Positions 16,564-26,962 of a DNA stretch of 35,123 nucleotides are shown in pieces. Where the stretch lies: NCBI GenBank assembly GCA_016284035.1, contig JAEEOC010000005.1:1-35123 (forward strand), in the 5' to 3' direction. Each line of letters begins with the position of its first letter. The stretch's first letter is position 1. A program made the translations under genes and the position numbers. Under the pieces are notes generated by a model that saw only the letters and a program-made list of their open reading frames with translations, made no database searches and had not been told where the DNA came from. The stretch comes from Dehalococcoidales bacterium (lineage in GTDB: Bacteria; Chloroflexota; Dehalococcoidia; Dehalococcoidales; UBA1222).

Positions 16564-17799
16564 TTAAGACCGTATGTCTTTACGGTTTGGTGTAGGTGTC
16601 ATTTTTTCAGAAAAAGCGTAATAGTCATTGACCAGACTCTTATACCCAAGAGCCTTGAGATCTTCGTAGCGTGCATTGAAACGGGATTTTTTCCTTGTGC
16701 CGGAATACAGGAAACGGATGCAGTCCTGGGCATAGAGATCGATGGCATGCAAACTTTCTGTAGTGTTGATCACGGAGAAGAACCAATAACTCCAGGTCAG
16801 CTCGTTATCACCGGCATTCTCCATGAGTTTCCGGTTGAATACTCTGATGAATGCCCTGGCGGCTCTCTCCCCGTCTTCATCGTGGCGGTCGCTCCAGCGC
16901 CGGAGGGCCCGGGCTTTCCTGCGCATCTTCTTCTTGAGTTTCATCAGTGTCACGGGAGCGATATCGATGACACCGTCCTTTTCGCAGAATCCCAGGAAGG
17001 TCCATCCTTCATCCGGTGTCGAGAATAACTCTTTGTCCGGATTAACTGAGAGACCTTTGGCAGCCAGAAGCTCTTTTATCTTGGCGGCATAGGATTCAGT
17101 TTCTTCTCTGGTTTTTCCGAAGACGATGATGTCATCTGAATATCTGGCGTAGGGGATCCTTGAAGATTCGAACCATTCATCCATGTCTTTCAGATAGAGA
17201 TTGGCGTAGAAAGCTGCCAGAGGCGTACCTGCCATGATGCCTTTTTCTTCGCAGATGATCTTTCCGCGGTCGGAGACTTCCTCTTTTTTCAGCAGTGCCG
17301 ACAGAAACTCATATAACGGAGCATCGTCCGAAAGTGTTTCCTTCAGGATCGGAAGAAATCTTTCGATGGGTATTGAATTGAAGTAGTTGCTGATATCGAC
17401 TTTATAGGAATACATCCCGCGTATCCCGGGGATGCCGGTAAGTCTCCGTATGGCGTCCTTGGCGGTCTTGCCGGGACGGAAAGAATAGAGATTAGCGGAG
17501 AATATCCCGTCGTACTTCCTTAATAACAGATATGTAAGGAGCTTCAGGACCGTCGTTTCGTCCTTGGGATAGATGTAGACGATACGTTTCTTTTTGGTGT
17601 CGATCTTGCTGATGACGGCTCTTCTCGGAAGCGGGAACGAAGCGGCATCGGACGTCTCATCGCAGACGGGAAGGTATCTTTCATTGTCGATGAACGATCT
17701 GAGCTCTTTGGTATACTGTTTGGGACAGACCAAAGACGTCTTATATTCGTAAAATGCTTCCCAGCGGGCGGGATCTTTAAGCTCTGCGAGCAGGGTCAT
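16564..17799 (-). CDS. Reverse transcriptase, group II-like lineage (YSDD), with maturase-like thumb and no endonuclease domain
   Basis: RT motifs in order: ISK..KKKRIVYI, YSFRPGKTAKDAI, KVDISNYFNSI, KGIMAGTPLAAFYANLYL, YARYSDDIIVF, GLSVNPDK, WTFLGF; thumb-like WSYWFF...LHAIDLY...LKALGYKSL; AGAAAGG RBS. Confidence 0.93.
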   Translation of the reverse strand: MTLLAELKDPARWEAFYEYKTSLVCPKQYTKELRSFIDNERYLPVCDETSDAASFPLPRRAVISKIDTKKKRIVYIYPKDETTVLKLLTYLLLRKYDGIFSANLYSFRPGKTAKDAIRRLTGIPGIRGMYSYKVDISNYFNSIPIERFLPILKETLSDDAPLYEFLSALLKKEEVSDRGKIICEEKGIMAGTPLAAFYANLYLKDMDEWFESSRIPYARYSDDIIVFGKTREETESYAAKIKELLAAKGLSVNPDKELFSTPDEGWTFLGFCEKDGVIDIAPVTLMKLKKKMRRKARALRRWSDRHDEDGERAARAFIRVFNRKLMENAGDNELTWSYWFFSVINTTESLHAIDLYAQDCIRFLYSGTRKKSRFNARYEDLKALGYKSLVNDYYAFSEKMTPTPNRKDIRS

Positions 17800-17823
17800 G
17801 CAGCTACCTTTCTAAAAAAAATA

Positions 17824-17957
17824 AAGGCAGGATGAGAAATCATTAAAGTCCGGAATGTTCCGGAGTGTACCAGACCGTACACGAACAACTGCCTGCGAAG
17901 TTGTTTTTGCGTTCGTGCCGGGCCCGCCGCAGGCGCTAAGCGTTCTCATTCTGCCTT
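17824..17957 (-). ncRNA. Predicted structured RNA directly upstream of the RT (~134 nt)
   Basis: 15-nt terminal inverted repeat with 14/15 match (17957-17943 / 17838-17824); hairpins at 17849-17864, 17865-17882 and 17884-17905; 7-bp loop pairing 17891-17897 with 17928-17934; U-tract at 17823-17814. Expression not shown. Confidence 0.7.
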
Positions 17958-17972
17958 GCAGAAAAGCCGATG

Positions 17973-18530
17973 TTAACCTTCCAGTGCTTTTCGAGTCCTG
18001 TCGATCACATAGGATTTGGTGTTCCACCAGCCATCTACGTCAGTATAGTAGCGCAGGTAGGGGATACCTGCATCGATGGTATCTCTGCGGAGCTTCTTGG
18101 CGCCGGACTTCTTCTTGAGGAGTTCGACCACGAGTGCTTTCCTGCCGAGAGAATAGAATGTGAAGAGATATCCTTCATATTCGGTATTGAATCCCGCTTC
18201 GATGGAATACTTACCGGAGAAGTTCTCGTCAAAGATCTTCTTGAAGTACTCATGTGGTTTGCCGTTGAAGTTGAACTGGTTTTCTTCATCGGGCATCTCT
18301 TCGCCCCAGGATACGCCGGACTTAGGTCGGTCGTCGTCGTAACTGTCGTTCTTCTTTTCTTCGACTTTGAACATATCCTTCAAAGGATCGCTGGCTTCTG
18401 CAGGTTTGGCTGAAGCTTCATTCTTTTTCACTTCGATGCCGGCATCCTTCATTGCTTTCTCAAACTCATTGAACTGCTGCTTGAGTTCATCCAGTTTGGC
18501 ATCGCCGAAAAGTTTGTCGAATAGACCCAT
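17973..18530 (-). CDS. Hypothetical RT-linked protein (185 aa): amphipathic N-terminus, charged linker, possible DUF559/DUF2726-like C-terminal fold
   Basis: Start moved from 18605 to ATG 18530 (GGAGG RBS), giving MGLFDKLFG; C-terminal ALVVELL...RRDTIDAGIPYLRYY. Fold call is inference. Confidence 0.8.
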   Translation of the reverse strand: MGLFDKLFGDAKLDELKQQFNEFEKAMKDAGIEVKKNEASAKPAEASDPLKDMFKVEEKKNDSYDDDRPKSGVSWGEEMPDEENQFNFNGKPHEYFKKIFDENFSGKYSIEAGFNTEYEGYLFTFYSLGRKALVVELLKKKSGAKKLRRDTIDAGIPYLRYYTDVDGWWNTKSYVIDRTRKALEG

Positions 18531-18595
18531 ATCATCCTCCTGATAGACCGTGTCCATGAGAGGTGTTAGCGGAAGGACGTGATTGTTTTGCCAGT

Positions 18596-18624
18596 ATTCT
18601 ATCACCCGCTATAGTGCATAACAA
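18596..18624 (-). promoter_or_regulatory. Sigma70-type promoter for the orf185-ncRNA-RT unit (TTGTTA-17-TAGAAT, extended TG)
   Basis: -35 at 18624-18619, -10 at 18601-18596, 17-nt spacer ending TGA. Confidence 0.55.
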
Positions 18625-18711
18625 TCACTACATTATTGGTATTACTTTAATATCTATGCCAAAAATGGTATCTTTTATTCTGTTCATCAAGCATAGATTG
18701 GAATAGTTATC

Positions 18712-19638
18712 ATGTATTACGACAATATCCTTCAGGCAGTCGGCCATACACCAATGGTCAAACTTCAGAGAATGGTCTCGCCCGAGATGGCTGATGTCAT
18801 CGTCAAATACGAGGGCCTCAATGTCGGCGGTTCGATCAAGACCAGAACTGCGCTGAACATGATCGAAGAGGCTGAACGCAAAGGTCTCATCAAAAAGGAT
18901 ACTGTCATCGTTGAGCCTACCAGCGGCAATCAGGGCATCGGTCTGGCATTGGTGGGTGCTGTCAAAGGATACCGCACTGTCATCGTCATGCCTGATTCCG
19001 TCAGCAGCGAACGAAAGTTCCTCATGGAACATTATGGTGCAGAGGTCATCCTCGTACATGATGACGGCAACATCGGCGAATGCATGGAGAACTGTCTCAA
19101 GACAGCTATGAAGATGGCAGAAGAAGATCCCAAGGTCTATGTACCTCAGCAGTTTTCGAATCCTGACAATCCTCTTGCTCATAAGCATCACACTGCTCTT
19201 GAGATCATGGAACAGATCGCAGGTCCCATCCATGGTTTCTGTGCCGGTGTAGGTACCGGCGGTACTCTTTCCGGTATCGGTGAGGTCTTGAAGGCACAGT
19301 ATCCCGACATCGAGATCTGGGCGGTTGAACCTGAGAATGCTGCGATCCTGGCCGGCGGAACTGTCGGAACTCATCTCCAGATGGGTATCGGCGACGGTAT
19401 CATTCCCGACAATCTCAATCAGAACATCTATTCCAGTGTCTATGTCGTAACCGATGAAGAGGCTATCCAGACTGCCAAGGATCTGGCCAAGAAAGAGGGT
19501 CTCATGTGCGGCATTTCCAGCGGAACTAATGTCGCGGCAGCACTCAGTCTGGCTAAAAAGTTGGGTCCCGGCAAGACTGTTGTTACAATATTACCTGATA
19601 CTGCAGAACGATATTTCAGTACGCCCTTGTTCAAATAG
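18712..19638 (+). CDS. cysK: Cysteine synthase (O-acetylserine thiol-lyase family, PLP)
   Basis: GGSIKTR PLP lysine, EPTSGNQG, GVGTGGT, GISSG, PDTAERYFST. Confidence 0.9.
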   Translation: MYYDNILQAVGHTPMVKLQRMVSPEMADVIVKYEGLNVGGSIKTRTALNMIEEAERKGLIKKDTVIVEPTSGNQGIGLALVGAVKGYRTVIVMPDSVSSERKFLMEHYGAEVILVHDDGNIGECMENCLKTAMKMAEEDPKVYVPQQFSNPDNPLAHKHHTALEIMEQIAGPIHGFCAGVGTGGTLSGIGEVLKAQYPDIEIWAVEPENAAILAGGTVGTHLQMGIGDGIIPDNLNQNIYSSVYVVTDEEAIQTAKDLAKKEGLMCGISSGTNVAAALSLAKKLGPGKTVVTILPDTAERYFSTPLFK

Positions 19639-19650
19639 GGCGTGTATCGA

Positions 19651-19726
19651 GCCAGCGTAGCTCAGTTGGTAGAGCAACGGTTTCGTAAACCGTCGGTCAA
19701 GAGTTCAAATCTCTTCGCTGGCTCCA
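19651..19726 (+). tRNA. tRNA-Thr (anticodon CGT)
   Basis: 76-nt cloverleaf: acceptor GCCAGCG/CGCTGGC, anticodon arm ACGGT-TTCGTAA-ACCGT, T arm AAGAG-TTCAAAT-CTCTT, encoded CCA. Confidence 0.97.
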
Positions 19727-23794: not shown

Positions 23795-23908
23795 AATGAT
23801 CTTCAGGGCAGGGTGTGATTCCCCACCGGCGGTATAACCCGCGAGCCGCAAGGCATGATTCGGTGAGATTCCGAAGTCGACAGTAGAGTCTGGATGGAAG
23901 AAGATTTA
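23795..23908 (+). promoter_or_regulatory. FMN riboswitch (RFN element)
   Basis: ATCTTCAGGGCAGGGTG..ATTCCCCACCGGCGGT...CCCGCGAGC...GATTCCGAAGTCGACAGT..AGTCTGGATGGAAGAAGAT matches the RFN consensus; upstream of ribD. Confidence 0.95.
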
Positions 23909-23979
23909 TGGTAAGAATCTTTGTAAGTATGCGCTGGTATCTATGACCAGAGTTTTTTATTTATAAAAGATGTACGCAG

Positions 23980-24014
23980 AGCCCTGAACATCAGATGTGT
24001 TTGGGGCTTTTTTT
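23980..24014 (+). terminator. Riboswitch-controlled terminator
   Basis: AGCCCTGAACA-loop-TGTTTGGGGCT followed by a T run; 5' arm GCCCTGAA is complementary to TTCAGGGC in the aptamer. Confidence 0.8.
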
Positions 24015-25106
24015 ATGGCGACAGATAAAGAATTTATGCAGATGGCGATCGACCTTGCAGAGAAGGGAATGGGGAACACCTCTCCCAATCCCATGGTCGG
24101 AGCAGTCATCGTAAAAGACGGCCGGGTCATCGGCAAAGGTTTCCATGAGAGATACGGCGAACTCCATGCCGAACGCAATGCGCTGAAGATGTGTACCGAG
24201 GATCCCCGCGGTGCCGTCATGTACGTGACACTGGAACCCTGCTGCCATACCGGAAAACAGCCTCCTTGTACGGATGCAGTGATCTCTTCCGGCATCAGCA
24301 AGGTCGTCGTCGGCTCTTCGGATCCGAATCCCGAAGTAGCCGGTAAAGGCATTCAGATCCTTCGCGAGCATGGTATCGAAGTCATCGAAGGCTTTATGAA
24401 AGAAGAATGCGACGCGCTGAATTATGTGTTCTTCCATTACATTACAAAAAATGTACCTTACGTCGTCATGAAATACGCTATGACCATCGATGGGAAGATC
24501 GCCACCTTTACGGGACACTCCAAATGGGTGTCATGCGAAGAGTCCCGTGAGGATGTCCAGATCCTTAGAAAACGTTATTCTGCCATCATGGTGGGGATCG
24601 GTACGGTGCTTGCGGATGATCCGATGCTCAATTGCAGGATCCCCGGTTCAAGACAGCCTGTCCGCATAATCTGTGATTCAAATCTGAGTATTCCGCTCGA
24701 ATCTAATATCGTCAGGACCGCGCAGGATTATAAGACTGTCATCGCGACATCCAGTGATGACGCTTCTAAGAAAGAAGAACTCAAGGGATTGGGATGCCGG
24801 ATACTGGATATCCCATCCTGTGACGGGCTCCTCGATCTTGAGATGCTCATGAGAGAACTTGGAAATATGAAGATCGACAGTATTCTCCTTGAAGGCGGCG
24901 GTACCATCAACTGGTCGATGGTAAAGGATGGGCTCATCGACAGAGTGGTCACATATATCGCCCCGAAGTTCTTCGGCGGGGATGCGGCAAAATCGCCTGT
25001 GGAAGGACAGGGTTTCGAAGAACCTTTCCAGGCTATGAATCTAAAAGTAGTCTCCGTCAGGAGATGTGATACAGACGTCGTTATCGAGAGCGAGGTGATC
25101 AGATAA
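24015..25106 (+). CDS. ribD: Bifunctional riboflavin deaminase/reductase
   Basis: PNPMVGAV, HAE, TLEPCCH....PPC, LLEGGG; start moved from 23997 to ATG 24015. Confidence 0.96.
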   Translation: MATDKEFMQMAIDLAEKGMGNTSPNPMVGAVIVKDGRVIGKGFHERYGELHAERNALKMCTEDPRGAVMYVTLEPCCHTGKQPPCTDAVISSGISKVVVGSSDPNPEVAGKGIQILREHGIEVIEGFMKEECDALNYVFFHYITKNVPYVVMKYAMTIDGKIATFTGHSKWVSCEESREDVQILRKRYSAIMVGIGTVLADDPMLNCRIPGSRQPVRIICDSNLSIPLESNIVRTAQDYKTVIATSSDDASKKEELKGLGCRILDIPSCDGLLDLEMLMRELGNMKIDSILLEGGGTINWSMVKDGLIDRVVTYIAPKFFGGDAAKSPVEGQGFEEPFQAMNLKVVSVRRCDTDVVIESEVIR

Positions 25107-25753
25107 TGTTTACCGGCATCATCGAAGAAGTCGGAACGATCAGAAGCGTACAGAGGGGACGCGATTCTGAGATCGTCACTGTTTCAGCATCTAAAGTGCT
25201 TGAAGGTACTAAGATCGGCGACAGCATTGCCGTGAACGGCATCTGTCTTACTGTGACTTCCCTTTCCGATGGAGCTTTTTCTGCCGATGTAATGCATGAG
25301 ACTTTAAACAGGTCTTCACTGAAAGGCGCATCTGTCGGTACTAAAGTGAATCTGGAACGCGCCATGCCGGCTGACGGCAGGTTCGGAGGACATATCGTGT
25401 CTGGACATGTGGACGGTACCGGCAGCATCACTTCCATAAGACGTGATGACAATGCTGTCTGGTTCACTGTCAGACCGGCTGCAGGACTCATGCGATATAT
25501 CGTCGAGAAGGGCTCTGTTGCTCTCGACGGTATCAGCCTGACGGTCGCCAAAGTCACTCCCGAGACATTTTCAGTCTCGATCATTCCGCATACTCTCGAC
25601 CAGACAGTGCTCTCGCACCGCAAGGTCGGGGATGACATCAATATCGAGACCGACATCATCGGAAAGTATGTAGAACATTTGCTTAAGAAGGATGAAGCTC
25701 CGGCCGGGAGATCCGGTATCACGGAGGAATTCCTTGAAAGATATGGTTTTTAG
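25106..25753 (+). CDS. ribE: Riboflavin synthase (alpha chain)
   Basis: [32 protein letters not shown]. Confidence 0.96.
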
Positions 25754-25762
25754 GAGGGATGG

Positions 25763-26962
25763 ATGATCCAATTCGATACAATTGAAGAAGCACTTGAAGA
25801 TCTGAAAAAAGGAAAGATAATCCTGGTTACTGACGATCCAGACCGTGAGAACGAAGGAGACTTCATCTGTGCGGCTGAGTTTGCCACCACTGCCAACATC
25901 AATTTCATGGCCAGTTACGGCAAGGGTCTCATCTGTATGCCCATGTCGGCTGAATATGTCAGGAAACTGCGTATCCCCCAGATGGTCCAGCAGAATACGG
26001 ATAACCATGAGACCGCTTTCACTGTTTCTATCGACCATGTTTCAACTTCCACCGGTATCTCAGCGGCTGAACGTTCTGTGACAGCGATGGCCTGTGTATC
26101 AGACGATGCCAAGCCTGATGATTTCCGACGTCCCGGTCACATGTTCCCGCTCCTTGCTAAACGCAACGGCGTCCTTGAAAGGAACGGTCATACCGAAGCA
26201 ACAGTCGATCTTTGCCGGCTTGCCGGTCTCAAGGAATGCGGCCTTTGCTGTGAGATCATGCGGGAAGACGGCACCATGATGCGCACTCCCGAACTGTATG
26301 AACTGGCCAAACAGTGGGATATGAAGTTCATCACCATCAAGGATCTGCAGACTTACCGCAAATACCACGATAAGCTTGTCGATCTGGTCACCAGTGTCAG
26401 TATGCCCACCAAATACGGTGAGTTCAGAGCCTACGGTTTTGTGAACAGACTCAACGGCGAACATCATGTGGCTCTCGTCAAAGGCGATATCGGAGATGGC
26501 AGGGATGTCTTATGCCGGGTTCATTCCGAGTGCCTTACCGGTGACACTTTCGGATCTCTCCGCTGCGACTGCGGACAGCAGTTTGCATCGGCCATGACCC
26601 AGATCGAACATGAAGGACGCGGTGTGCTCCTTTACATGCGTCAGGAAGGTCGCGGCATCGGTCTCATCAATAAGCTCAGAGCTTACGAACTGCAGGAACA
26701 GGGCATGGATACCGTCGATGCCAATATCGCACTGGGTTTCAGGAGCGATGAACGCGAATACTTCATCGGTGCTCAGATCCTGCGCGAACTGGGCGTAAAG
26801 AGCATGAGGATACTTACCAACAATCCCGACAAGGTCTATCAGCTCAAGGAATTTGGTTTGGAGATCACGGAGAGGGTCCCCATCCAGATGTCTGCCACTG
26901 ATTATGATGTCAATTATCTCAAGACCAAACAGGTCCGTATGGGTCACATCCTGGATATCTAG
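25763..26962 (+). CDS. ribBA: Bifunctional DHBP synthase / GTP cyclohydrolase II
   Basis: [51 protein letters not shown]. Confidence 0.97.

Follow-up and report, generated by a model that had tools for sequence, protein, structure and literature searches.

An RT-5 RNA beside a UG26 reverse transcriptase gene: a conserved pseudoknotted fold with a ten-nucleotide single-stranded segment of near-constant length

On contig JAEEOC010000005.1 of a Dehalococcoidales bacterium (assembly GCA_016284035.1), an intergenic stretch of the minus strand, positions 17972-17800, lies between a 210-amino-acid (aa) open reading frame (ORF; 17973-18605) and a 411-aa ORF (16564-17799) that encodes a reverse transcriptase (RT). 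The whole stretch of DNA analysed, 35,123 nucleotides (nt) long, is called the window in what follows. An earlier note, made from the letters of the window, had placed in this intergenic stretch (17824-17957) a compact RNA with a closing helix, three hairpins and a 7-base-pair (bp) pseudoknot, and had suggested that it would suit a template for a short or repetitive cDNA. The question raised by the locus is to which family such an RNA belongs, whether its fold is conserved, and whether it is copied by the RT encoded next to it or serves it in some other way. That the element belongs to the Rfam family RT-5 and is the partner of an RT of group UG26 is practically certain.

The assignment of the RNA comes from Rfam, the search of which had been put forward in the earlier note as a check. 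In a scan of 17000-19000, positions 17835-17938 of the minus strand matched RF03026 (RT-5 RNA) with 90.6 bits and E 3.1e-18 (gathering score 45.7), the match spanning positions 1-104 of the 104 of the model, and the same result was obtained when the whole window was scanned. Rfam matches in the whole window are three, namely RT-5 RNA, an FMN riboswitch and a tRNA. The RNA is already catalogued as a family, without an assigned function. RF03026 occurs as a single copy in the 1.32-Mb genome to which the window belongs and was not found in 150 other sampled genomes of the same class; the family is rare among those searched. RT-5 is one of the motifs RT-1 to RT-19 described by Weinberg et al. (2017, NAR 45:10811), which were defined near RT genes and judged too small for group II introns, and for which it was speculated that they belong to retrons or to diversity-generating retroelements, many of them acting in retrons. 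In the main text of that paper RT-5 appears nowhere by name. A match to a family unrelated to RTs had been foreseen as an outcome that would speak against the prediction; since RF03026 is defined by its adjacency to RT genes, the match found here is of the other kind.

The element shares with RT-5 as defined in Rfam the P1-P2-P3 hairpin, the 3' hairpin, the conserved strings GCGCCUGCG and UUGCAGGC, and an adjacent RT gene. The Rfam model begins after the 5' arm of the closing helix and stops 4 nt into its 3' arm, and therefore lacks this 14-15-bp helix, which is present in every homolog examined even though it lies outside the model. The 3' end of the RNA is 24 nt ahead of the RT start codon, and a stretch of 151 nt folds with a minimum free energy (MFE) of -52.9 kcal/mol, compared with a mean of -38.5 for dinucleotide shuffles (z -4.18; 0/200 shuffles as low). 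We read the mature RNA as a molecule of about 135 nt, the ends of which are joined by the 14-15-bp closing helix P0; within it the long, bent P1-P3 hairpin has its apical loop locked onto the 5' strand by the 7-bp pseudoknot, and the short GC-rich hairpin P4 comes next, connected to P0 by the ten-nucleotide single strand. The parts of the module, from 5' to 3' on the minus strand, are the following.

17973-18530, minus strand: accessory gene, RT-associated COG2852 protein, 185 aa counted from Met26 of the 210-aa ORF (PADLOC RTasCOG2852)
17943-17957, minus strand: 5' arm of the closing helix P0, AAGGCAGAAUGAGAA; 14/15 pairs, covariation and own-versus-cross duplex energy; outside the Rfam model
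17935-17942, minus strand: 5' linker CGCUUAGC, with a possible mini-hairpin of 2-3 bp (YGC-loop-GCG) whose core pairs are invariant
17928-17934, minus strand: 5' strand of the pseudoknot, GCCUGCG (comparative pairing)
17871-17926, minus strand: long hairpin P1-P2-P3; it contains the asymmetric internal loop J2/3 and ends in an apical loop of 8 nt (Rfam consensus structure)
17903-17910, minus strand: A-rich internal loop J2/3, GCAAAAAC, single-stranded between helices
17891-17897, minus strand: 3' strand of the pseudoknot, CGCAGGC, in the apical loop of P3 (comparative pairing)
17865-17870, minus strand: junction GUACAC between P1 and P4; columns G93 and T94 invariant, A95 nearly so
17849-17864, minus strand: hairpin P4, UCCGGA-ACAU-UCCGGA, candidate 5' template-boundary anchor; 6/6 pairs covary
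17839-17848, minus strand: ten-nucleotide single-stranded segment CUUUAAUGAU, consensus nUUUAAYGnn, candidate template; unpaired in the MFE fold
17824-17838, minus strand: 3' arm of P0, UUCUCAUCCUGCCUU (pairing and covariation)
17812-17823, minus strand: U-rich run after the closing helix, likely RNA 3' end or terminator tract (from its sequence)
16564-17799, minus strand: 411-aa reverse transcriptase of UG26, a class 2 UG/Abi group; catalytic motif YSDD (Pfam RVT_1; PADLOC RT_UG26)

The conservation of this fold was examined in two sets of homologs. For the genome set, one genome per species was scanned, which gave 36 loci with RT relatives at 45-63% identity, all of them in metagenome-assembled genomes (MAGs) of rumen and gut Bacillota; the metagenome set consists of the best 80 of at least 511 RT relatives on metagenome contigs. 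A covariance model was built with the closing helix included, and 35 genome RNAs were realigned to this extended model. It has to be noted that alignments fitted to nested helices favour them, while the own-versus-cross test and the slid controls are independent of the fitting. Individual loci are cited below by our own handles (L004 and the like).

In the 35 genome RNAs, the whole nested structure is 92.4% paired and 30 of its 37 pairs change on both sides, with 0/500 shuffles as high and slid controls at 37-49% paired; in the 76 metagenome RNAs, 95.8% is paired and 29/37 pairs change on both sides. The homolog alignment that the earlier note had recommended has in this way returned a fold that is kept and that covaries in both sets. 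The closing helix, for which that note had paired 17957-17943 with 17838-17824, contains 14 pairs out of 15, with one A/C mismatch, and stands as described. It is 94.1% paired in the genome set, with 13 of 14 pairs changing on both sides, and 96.2% paired in the metagenome set, with 13/14 pairs compensatory. As the printed flanks show, its sequences differ between loci and a terminal helix is found in every locus. When duplex energies are calculated free of any alignment, the two arms of one RNA give -22.4 kcal/mol, arms taken from different loci -14.7, and shuffled arms -11.4.

The consensus helices P1-P4 of RT-5 are likewise maintained via compensatory change in the genome set and again in the metagenome set: in the former, changes on both sides are seen in 8 of the 13 pairs of P1/P2 and in 3/4 of P3, and P4 shows them in all six of its pairs in both sets. 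The pseudoknot (17934-17928 with 17897-17891, 7/7 pairs) was left out of the covariance model, so that its pairing had no influence on the alignment. In the 35 genome RNAs 98.4% of it is paired, 3/7 pairs are compensatory, and 0-1 of 500 shuffles equal it; of the changes, five are from C-G to U-A, one is from G-C to A-U and one from U-A to C-G. Among the metagenome RNAs the paired fraction is 99.2%, and a single pair is compensatory.

All the strings quoted in the earlier note lie on the minus strand at the positions given there, and its smaller helices have fared unequally. The hairpin UCCGGAA/UUCCGGA is retained as P4 with 6 bp and a 4-nt loop, without the seventh bp. Of AACAACU/AGUUGUU, the inner 4 bp correspond to P3, and the outer 3 pairs are paired in 37.6%, the same as in shuffles. 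The hairpin GUGUAC/GUACAC is 85% pairable by conservation alone, with 0 compensatory changes and a value reached by 310/500 shuffles. On these counts it is not supported, and it competes with P1/P2, which covary; it may at most form an alternative conformer. CACGAAC/GUUCGUG, taken at the time for a competing extension, actually belongs to the true 8-bp P2 stem of the family.

Two further regions of the RNA are enlarged in some loci. The mini-hairpin of the 5' linker lacks statistical support, its core pairs being invariant, yet it is stretched to 7-9 bp in L014 and L033. The internal loop J2/3 hosts extra hairpins of about 10-70 nt in four loci (L005 2799-2977, L014 2828-2943, L018 2833-2958 and L020 2712-2837), and it consequently tolerates expansion. 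Between the linker and the pseudoknot an association of another type was observed in columns 21 and 44 of alignment A2 (17942 and 17929 in the window), where C or U as the first linker base goes together with C or U in the pseudoknot strand: CGC accompanies CCUGCGG and UGC accompanies CCUGUGG, a relationship that is not Watson-Crick.

In both sets the RNA accompanies the RT gene. RT-5 was found above the gathering cut-off in 34 of the 36 genome loci with a UG26 homolog (19/20 plus 15/16), the misses being L004, with 118 nt upstream only, and L037, with an RT fragment. The extended model matches 76 of the 80 metagenome loci; L091, L099 and L114, among the misses, have 4, 1 and 127 nt upstream, and L050 has 1500 nt upstream and no match. 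The order accessory gene, RNA, RT is constant in genome and metagenome loci. A COG2852-like gene is located directly upstream of the RNA in 20/34 genome loci and in 66 of the 68 metagenome loci with enough upstream sequence, and in the metagenome loci the tblastn match to it stops 5-176 nt before the first position of the model. Two divergent accessory-RNA-RT modules are carried on two contigs of one MAG (L006 and L007), with RT identities to that of the window of 59% and 61%.

The RNA and the RT gene are separable, since in 8/34 genome loci the two are 259-1366 nt apart, and in loci with a distant RT the RNA stays beside the accessory gene. The intervening ORFs of three of these loci, labelled by reading alone, comprise a lipoprotein-like ORF in L021 (2112-2987), two GNAT acetyltransferase-like ORFs plus a membrane ORF in L024 (1714-2974), and, in L027 (2293-2973), a 226-aa ORF with a SAP-like N-terminal part. 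Judged from spacing, this last ORF probably recurs in L028, L029 and L031, and it may be an alternative accessory protein. In L027, which has no accessory gene, a promoter-like site (11/12, with a TG extension) was found, the -10 box of which ends 7-8 nt before the 5' arm; L036, also devoid of an accessory gene, shows a 10/12 site with the TG extension at the same spacing, and a promoter scan of L017 gave nothing. U-runs come after the 3' arm in most homologs, as they do in the window. The distance from the RT, the promoter-like sites and the U-run after the 3' arm together point to a separate trans-acting RNA rather than to a leader of the RT mRNA.

The RT itself is assigned to UG26 by PADLOC, whose RT_UG26 model matches with E 3.1e-175 and 580.7 bits, residues 1-398 aligning with profile positions 1-397 of 398. 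The runner-up models are a generic RT (PDLC01136, 115.3 bits), UG27 (99.1) and UG17 (94.7). In Pfam the ORF matches RVT_1 only, with no fused known domain, and the NCBIfam RT models (group II, Drt2, Drt3a, retron) are all far below their cut-offs. Residues Y220, S221, D222 and D223 are invariant across 31 sequences. In an AlphaFold2 model (predicted local distance difference test, pLDDT, 89.6) the nearest fold is the group II intron RT GsI-IIC, with a template modelling (TM) score of 0.68-0.73 and E 4e-18, followed by G2L4; DRT9 gives TM 0.59-0.61 and DRT2 0.49. Sequence search ranks them in the same manner, with group II intron/G2L4 RTs at a phmmer E of 1.7e-16. On viral contigs no close UG26 was found, the best of 18 matches being 31% identical and these matches presumably belonging to other RT groups. 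UG26 has been described as a class 2 UG/Abi group in which 9/35 members are co-located with a COG2852 (Vsr-like) protein (Mestre et al. 2022), and the passages of that study on UG26 mention no non-coding RNA (ncRNA) for it.

The accessory protein is matched by the PADLOC model RTasCOG2852 with E 1.5e-51. Met26 of the 210-aa ORF is its probable true start, as indicated by the conserved N-terminus MGLFxKLFG in the alignment. This motif, strictly conserved at residues 1-9, is followed by a disordered linker, low in confidence and compositionally biased at residues 30-75, and by a C-terminal Vsr/DUF559-like domain. The AlphaFold2 model has a pLDDT of 76, with most of the C-terminal domain at or above 88 and an alpha-beta-beta-beta-alpha-beta-alpha order. 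A VIA comparison with 48,161 chains gave the catalytic domain of I-Bth0305I (Z 7.3), NGO0050 (DUF559; Z 7.2) and Vsr (Z 6.7), values that agree with the COG2852 label but fall in the stated background range of the tool. Foldseek against the PDB returned nothing at E <= 0.001, and a PDB sequence search nothing below E 0.5. In the alignment a canonical (D/E)xK is not conserved, with only E136 invariant.

Around the module, several other elements were observed. An FMN riboswitch (RF00050, 110.8 bits) is located at 23795-23909 on the plus strand, directly upstream of a riboflavin operon (23997-26962, plus strand) containing ribD-like, lumazine-binding, and 3,4-dihydroxy-2-butanone 4-phosphate (DHBP) synthase/GTP cyclohydrolase II genes. 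A tRNA lies at 19651-19723 on the plus strand, within about 1-2 kb of the UG26 module, and tRNA genes are found directly beside the module in L013 (4247-4410), L014 (4411-4484), L024 (620-692) and L031 (5081-5164); this proximity may mark insertion hot spots. A 248-aa ORF at 18628-19374 on the minus strand has no family match and is antisense to the gene of a pyridoxal phosphate (PLP)-dependent enzyme (18712-19638, plus strand; PALP, E 3e-75), and it is probably not a gene. In L028 (1095-1290) and L029 (948-1511), two to three copies of Gut-1 RNA (RF01706) occur about 1 kb upstream of the RT-5 RNA. In L002 (4271-4506) a T-box leader begins 80 nt past the RT stop codon and forms the downstream edge of the module there.

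As regards a possible template, the part of the RNA that draws attention is the segment between P4 and P0, which the earlier note had singled out as unpaired ahead of the 3' arm; it is indeed single-stranded in the MFE fold (17848-17839). Its length is 10 nt in 33/35 genome RNAs and 73/76 metagenome RNAs (106/111). After the consensus nUUUAAYGnn comes UUCUC, a conserved part of P0. None of the 35 genome RNAs departs from UUnAA; there is next to no variation in UU, the two A's and the inner P0 pairs, and positions 7-10 of the segment vary. A model for how such a segment could be used is offered by the telomerase-like defence-associated reverse transcriptase (DRT) system DRT10 (UG17), whose 137-nt ncRNA is reported to carry an A-B-A' template, of which the RT copies the 9-nt A-B repeatedly, resetting on a downstream A' identical to A; a stem-loop directly 5' of the template sets the boundary, and the templates show little sequence conservation (Tang et al. 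2025, bioRxiv 10.1101/2025.10.16.682844).

A comparable repeat was sought in RT-5. A direct repeat of at least 3 nt surrounds the variable part in 46/56 distinct contexts, formed by U-runs at both ends. The base that precedes the first U-run is the same as that preceding the second in 31 of these 56 contexts, compared with 23.2 expected (permutation p 0.012, uncorrected), and the longest flanking repeat averages 3.36 versus 3.13 (p 0.011, pooled set). Longer flanking repeats are found in L007 and L034 (five bases) and in L025 (CUUU). The direct-repeat (A-A') signal is weak, with no significant covariation left after phylogenetic control, and the template is something that we infer. The role suggested in the earlier note, a template yielding a short or repetitive cDNA, agrees with what has been shown for the class 2 UG RTs of DRT9 and DRT10 and with the fixed 10-nt length between two helices.

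Taking these elements together, and by analogy with known systems, we incline slightly to the view that the RT-5 RNA is a dedicated trans-acting RNA subunit of a three-part system formed by the Vsr-like COG2852 protein, the RNA and the UG26 RT, whose product would be a short or tandem cDNA. A template internal to the RNA is, on balance, a little more probable than not, and the ten-nucleotide segment is the best candidate for it, at somewhat less than even chances. According to this proposal, the UG26 RT would bind the RT-5 scaffold, as in DRT2, DRT3, DRT9 and DRT10, with P4 and the conserved inner end of P0 (GAGAA/UUCUC) serving as two anchors; the boundary role of P4 is suggested by stem-loop SL5 of DRT10. 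The RT would then copy the 10-nt segment, however priming may occur, and the two U-runs would supply the microhomology for a reset, from which short or tandem A/T-rich cDNA would result. Were such repeats added, the unit in this window would be complementary to UUUAAUGA. The accessory protein would act on the cDNA product or downstream of it, and any role in defence would be putative.

Several observations weigh against this proposal. In the genome set alone the A-A' repeat is not above chance (own 3.31 versus cross 3.16, p 0.20), and it consists mostly of conserved U-runs; in this window it is UUU only, and the proposed A' overlaps the inner closing helix. The RT tree leaves 7 independent pairs, of which, on average, 3.7 change the same way, 0.3 the opposite way, and 3.0 are unchanged, and a sign test on these 7 pairs, under-powered as it is, has a median p of 0.25. 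By sequence and by fold, group II intron RTs are closer relatives of the UG26 RT than the RTs of DRT9, DRT2 or DRT10 are, so that the analogy with DRTs may mislead, and the association of UG26 with defence was called 'inconclusive' by Mestre et al. (2022). The module is situated amid housekeeping genes (ABC exporters, Mur ligase, a PLP enzyme, iron uptake, the riboflavin operon), and the RNA of the window has no good promoter of its own, the sole match (9/12) being inside the 5' arm. As to its transcription, which counts in favour of the proposal, contigs from four RNA libraries (three studies), retrieved using this stretch itself, cover the RNA at a depth of 2-4; being Logan contigs, they carry no level, strand or termini. 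Two of them, each from another study, break off at 17826 and 17830, short of the 3' end of P0 by 2-6 nt, which is a weak hint of the RNA 3' end; others extend up into the accessory gene, and one continues into the RT start. The RT body (17200-17715) and most of the accessory gene are not covered by any contig, a fact that says nothing on expression levels.

The linkage and the fold would be explained equally well if the RNA were an obligate partner of the RT that is never copied, required for assembly, activation or inhibition, with the RT making untemplated or protein-templated DNA or copying a phage or host transcript. The lack of A-A' covariation after phylogenetic control suits this explanation, the conserved UUUAA could be a protein contact, and class 1 DRTs are described as making untemplated DNA. 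We nevertheless consider it unlikely, given that the class 2 UG RTs DRT2, DRT3a, DRT9 and DRT10 are all reported to copy their own ncRNA, and that a fixed 10-nt unpaired segment between covarying helices is the geometry reported for those templates. Should the RNA be copied, the template could in principle lie elsewhere in it, in J2/3 (GCAAAAAC, 17903-17910) or in the junction GUACAC (17865-17870), both of which are single-stranded and flanked by helices; J2/3 is poorly conserved in sequence, as DRT10 templates are. Its variable length, with whole hairpins inserted in L005, L014, L018 and L020, is however hard to square with a measured template, and the GUA junction is only 5-6 nt long and nearly invariant, which makes either site improbable.

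The remaining explanations concern the closing helix. Shortly before the RT start codon, the helix and the U-run behind it might form a cis-acting leader, that is, a terminator, attenuator or RNase III site controlling RT expression; RNA-library contigs that span the accessory gene into the RNA make co-transcription plausible, and a closing helix of 15-20 bp could be an RNase III substrate. Such a leader should not, however, be found 259-1366 nt from the RT, as it is in 8/34 genome loci, with intervening ORFs read in three of them, and a covarying pseudoknot, four helices and invariant unpaired bases exceed the needs of a terminator. A scan of 17700-18150 for an intrinsic terminator (short GC-rich hairpin with a 3-8-nt loop and a U-run) gave 0 sites, the helix before the U-run enclosing 105 nt, and we hold the leader to be very improbable. 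No more credit can be given to a retron-like msr-msd, in which the closing helix would act as a1/a2, with a G close to the 5' arm priming through its 2'-OH and yielding a short branched msDNA. The terminal inverted repeat does make the 5' linker face the 3' single strand, just like a1/a2, a likeness already pointed out in the earlier note, and the speculation of Weinberg et al. (2017) that many RT motifs act in retrons is in its favour. The RT is not of the retron type, though: NCBIfam retron_St85_RT gives 48.6 bits against a cut-off of 235, and the best PADLOC model is UG26. An msd stem-loop is absent, and pseudoknots are not known as a feature of retrons.

Since the survey of 2017, RT-5 has been listed in Rfam with no function attached to it, and in 2022 the defence call for UG26 was left 'inconclusive'. 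To these, the present analysis adds the pairing of RT-5 with UG26, the covarying closing helix, the covariation of the pseudoknot, a near-constant three-part module and the fixed 10-nt segment. In the literature, no publication joining RT-5 and UG26 was found, a matter on which the supplements of Weinberg et al. (2017) and Mestre et al. (2022) may bear. A search of full texts gave nothing on RF03026/RT-5 RNA; for UG26 RTs, among the papers listed, only Mestre et al. (2022) and a cold-seep virome were relevant, and on DRT11-13 nothing concerned UG26, the one relevant item being a UG5 RT-nitrilase paper with 'DRT11'. For RNA-templated class 2 UG RTs a common logic has recently been proposed, the geometry of which is such a fixed segment between two helices. 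If the RNA is copied, the system would serve to test whether this logic also holds for an RT more similar to those of group II introns, and would show whether pseudoknot-bearing scaffolds resembling telomerase RNA occur in bacteria. The module is small, about 2 kb with two genes and one RNA, and hence readily testable.

Taking into account the known systems, the RT-5/UG26 element cannot be classed as a retron, group II intron, DRT10 system or plain terminator, since it lacks one or more of the defining features tested for each. By structure and by sequence, the UG26 RT has its best matches among group II intron RTs (GsI-IIC) and G2L4; unlike in group II introns, no intron RNA appears in the Rfam scan of the whole window, the RNA is on one side only and about 135 nt long, and the NCBIfam group II RT/maturase model reaches 104.8 bits against a cut-off of 300. 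As in the msr-msd of retrons, terminal inverted repeats close an RNA beside an RT gene, whereas the RT type and the accessory protein differ, the interior consists of a pseudoknotted hairpin and a 6-bp hairpin in place of an msd hairpin, and no retron model leads in the PADLOC scan of the RT.

DRT9 joins a UG28 RT to an ncRNA and is reported to make protein-primed poly-dA on a conserved uridine tract (Tang et al. 2025). It is the nearest DRT structure to the UG26 model (TM 0.59-0.61). The RT-5 segment reads UUUAAYGnn rather than a pure U tract, the DRT9 RT has about 490-500 aa against the 411 aa found here, and the RNA folds are unrelated, with no Rfam or other cross-match seen. The features shared with DRT10 are a class 2 UG RT without fused domains, an operon-encoded ncRNA of similar size (137 nt), a short single-stranded segment between two helices, a stem-loop directly 5' of it and, as a weak signal in RT-5, short direct repeats at the ends of the segment. 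In contrast, the RT of the window scores 94.7 bits with the UG17 model and 580.7 with that of UG26, and its accessory protein is Vsr-like, where DRT10 has a SLATT effector; no SLATT family appeared in the Pfam/PADLOC scans of neighbouring ORFs. The RNA has a pseudoknot and a closing helix, and that of DRT10 consists of 5-6 stem-loops in a pseudo-symmetric arrangement; in the DRT10 structure preprint (10.64898/2026.06.29.735271) the word 'pseudoknot' appears 0 times.

A further likeness is that with the core of telomerase RNA; it is one of parts only, with no homology by sequence or by model. Telomerase RNA has a helix that encloses its core, to which P0 would correspond, and the list of parts in common goes on with a pseudoknot, a hairpin (in RT-5 a candidate) marking the 5' boundary of a short, here putative, template, and possible microhomology for alignment. 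The telomerase template and its boundary element are taken here as described in section 8 of Tang et al. (2025). In RT-5, on the other hand, the pseudoknot precedes the boundary hairpin and the segment, the RNA is much smaller, and its pseudoknot is GC-rich, for which reason a triplex of the U-A-U type is not expected. It could thus be proposed, as a speculation that we ourselves rate as rather doubtful, that RT-5 and the UG26 RT are a minimal bacterial counterpart of the telomerase core, in which a ~135-nt RNA uniting core-enclosing helix, pseudoknot, boundary hairpin and a 10-nt template of fixed geometry would be copied over and over by a compact, group-II-intron-like RT of 411 aa, to give tandem repeats of 8-10 nt, used or processed by the Vsr-like nuclease-fold protein. 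If this were true, RT-5 would be the first pseudoknotted RNA of a class 2 UG system, and the module would represent a new type of DRT, found mainly in rumen and gut Clostridia.

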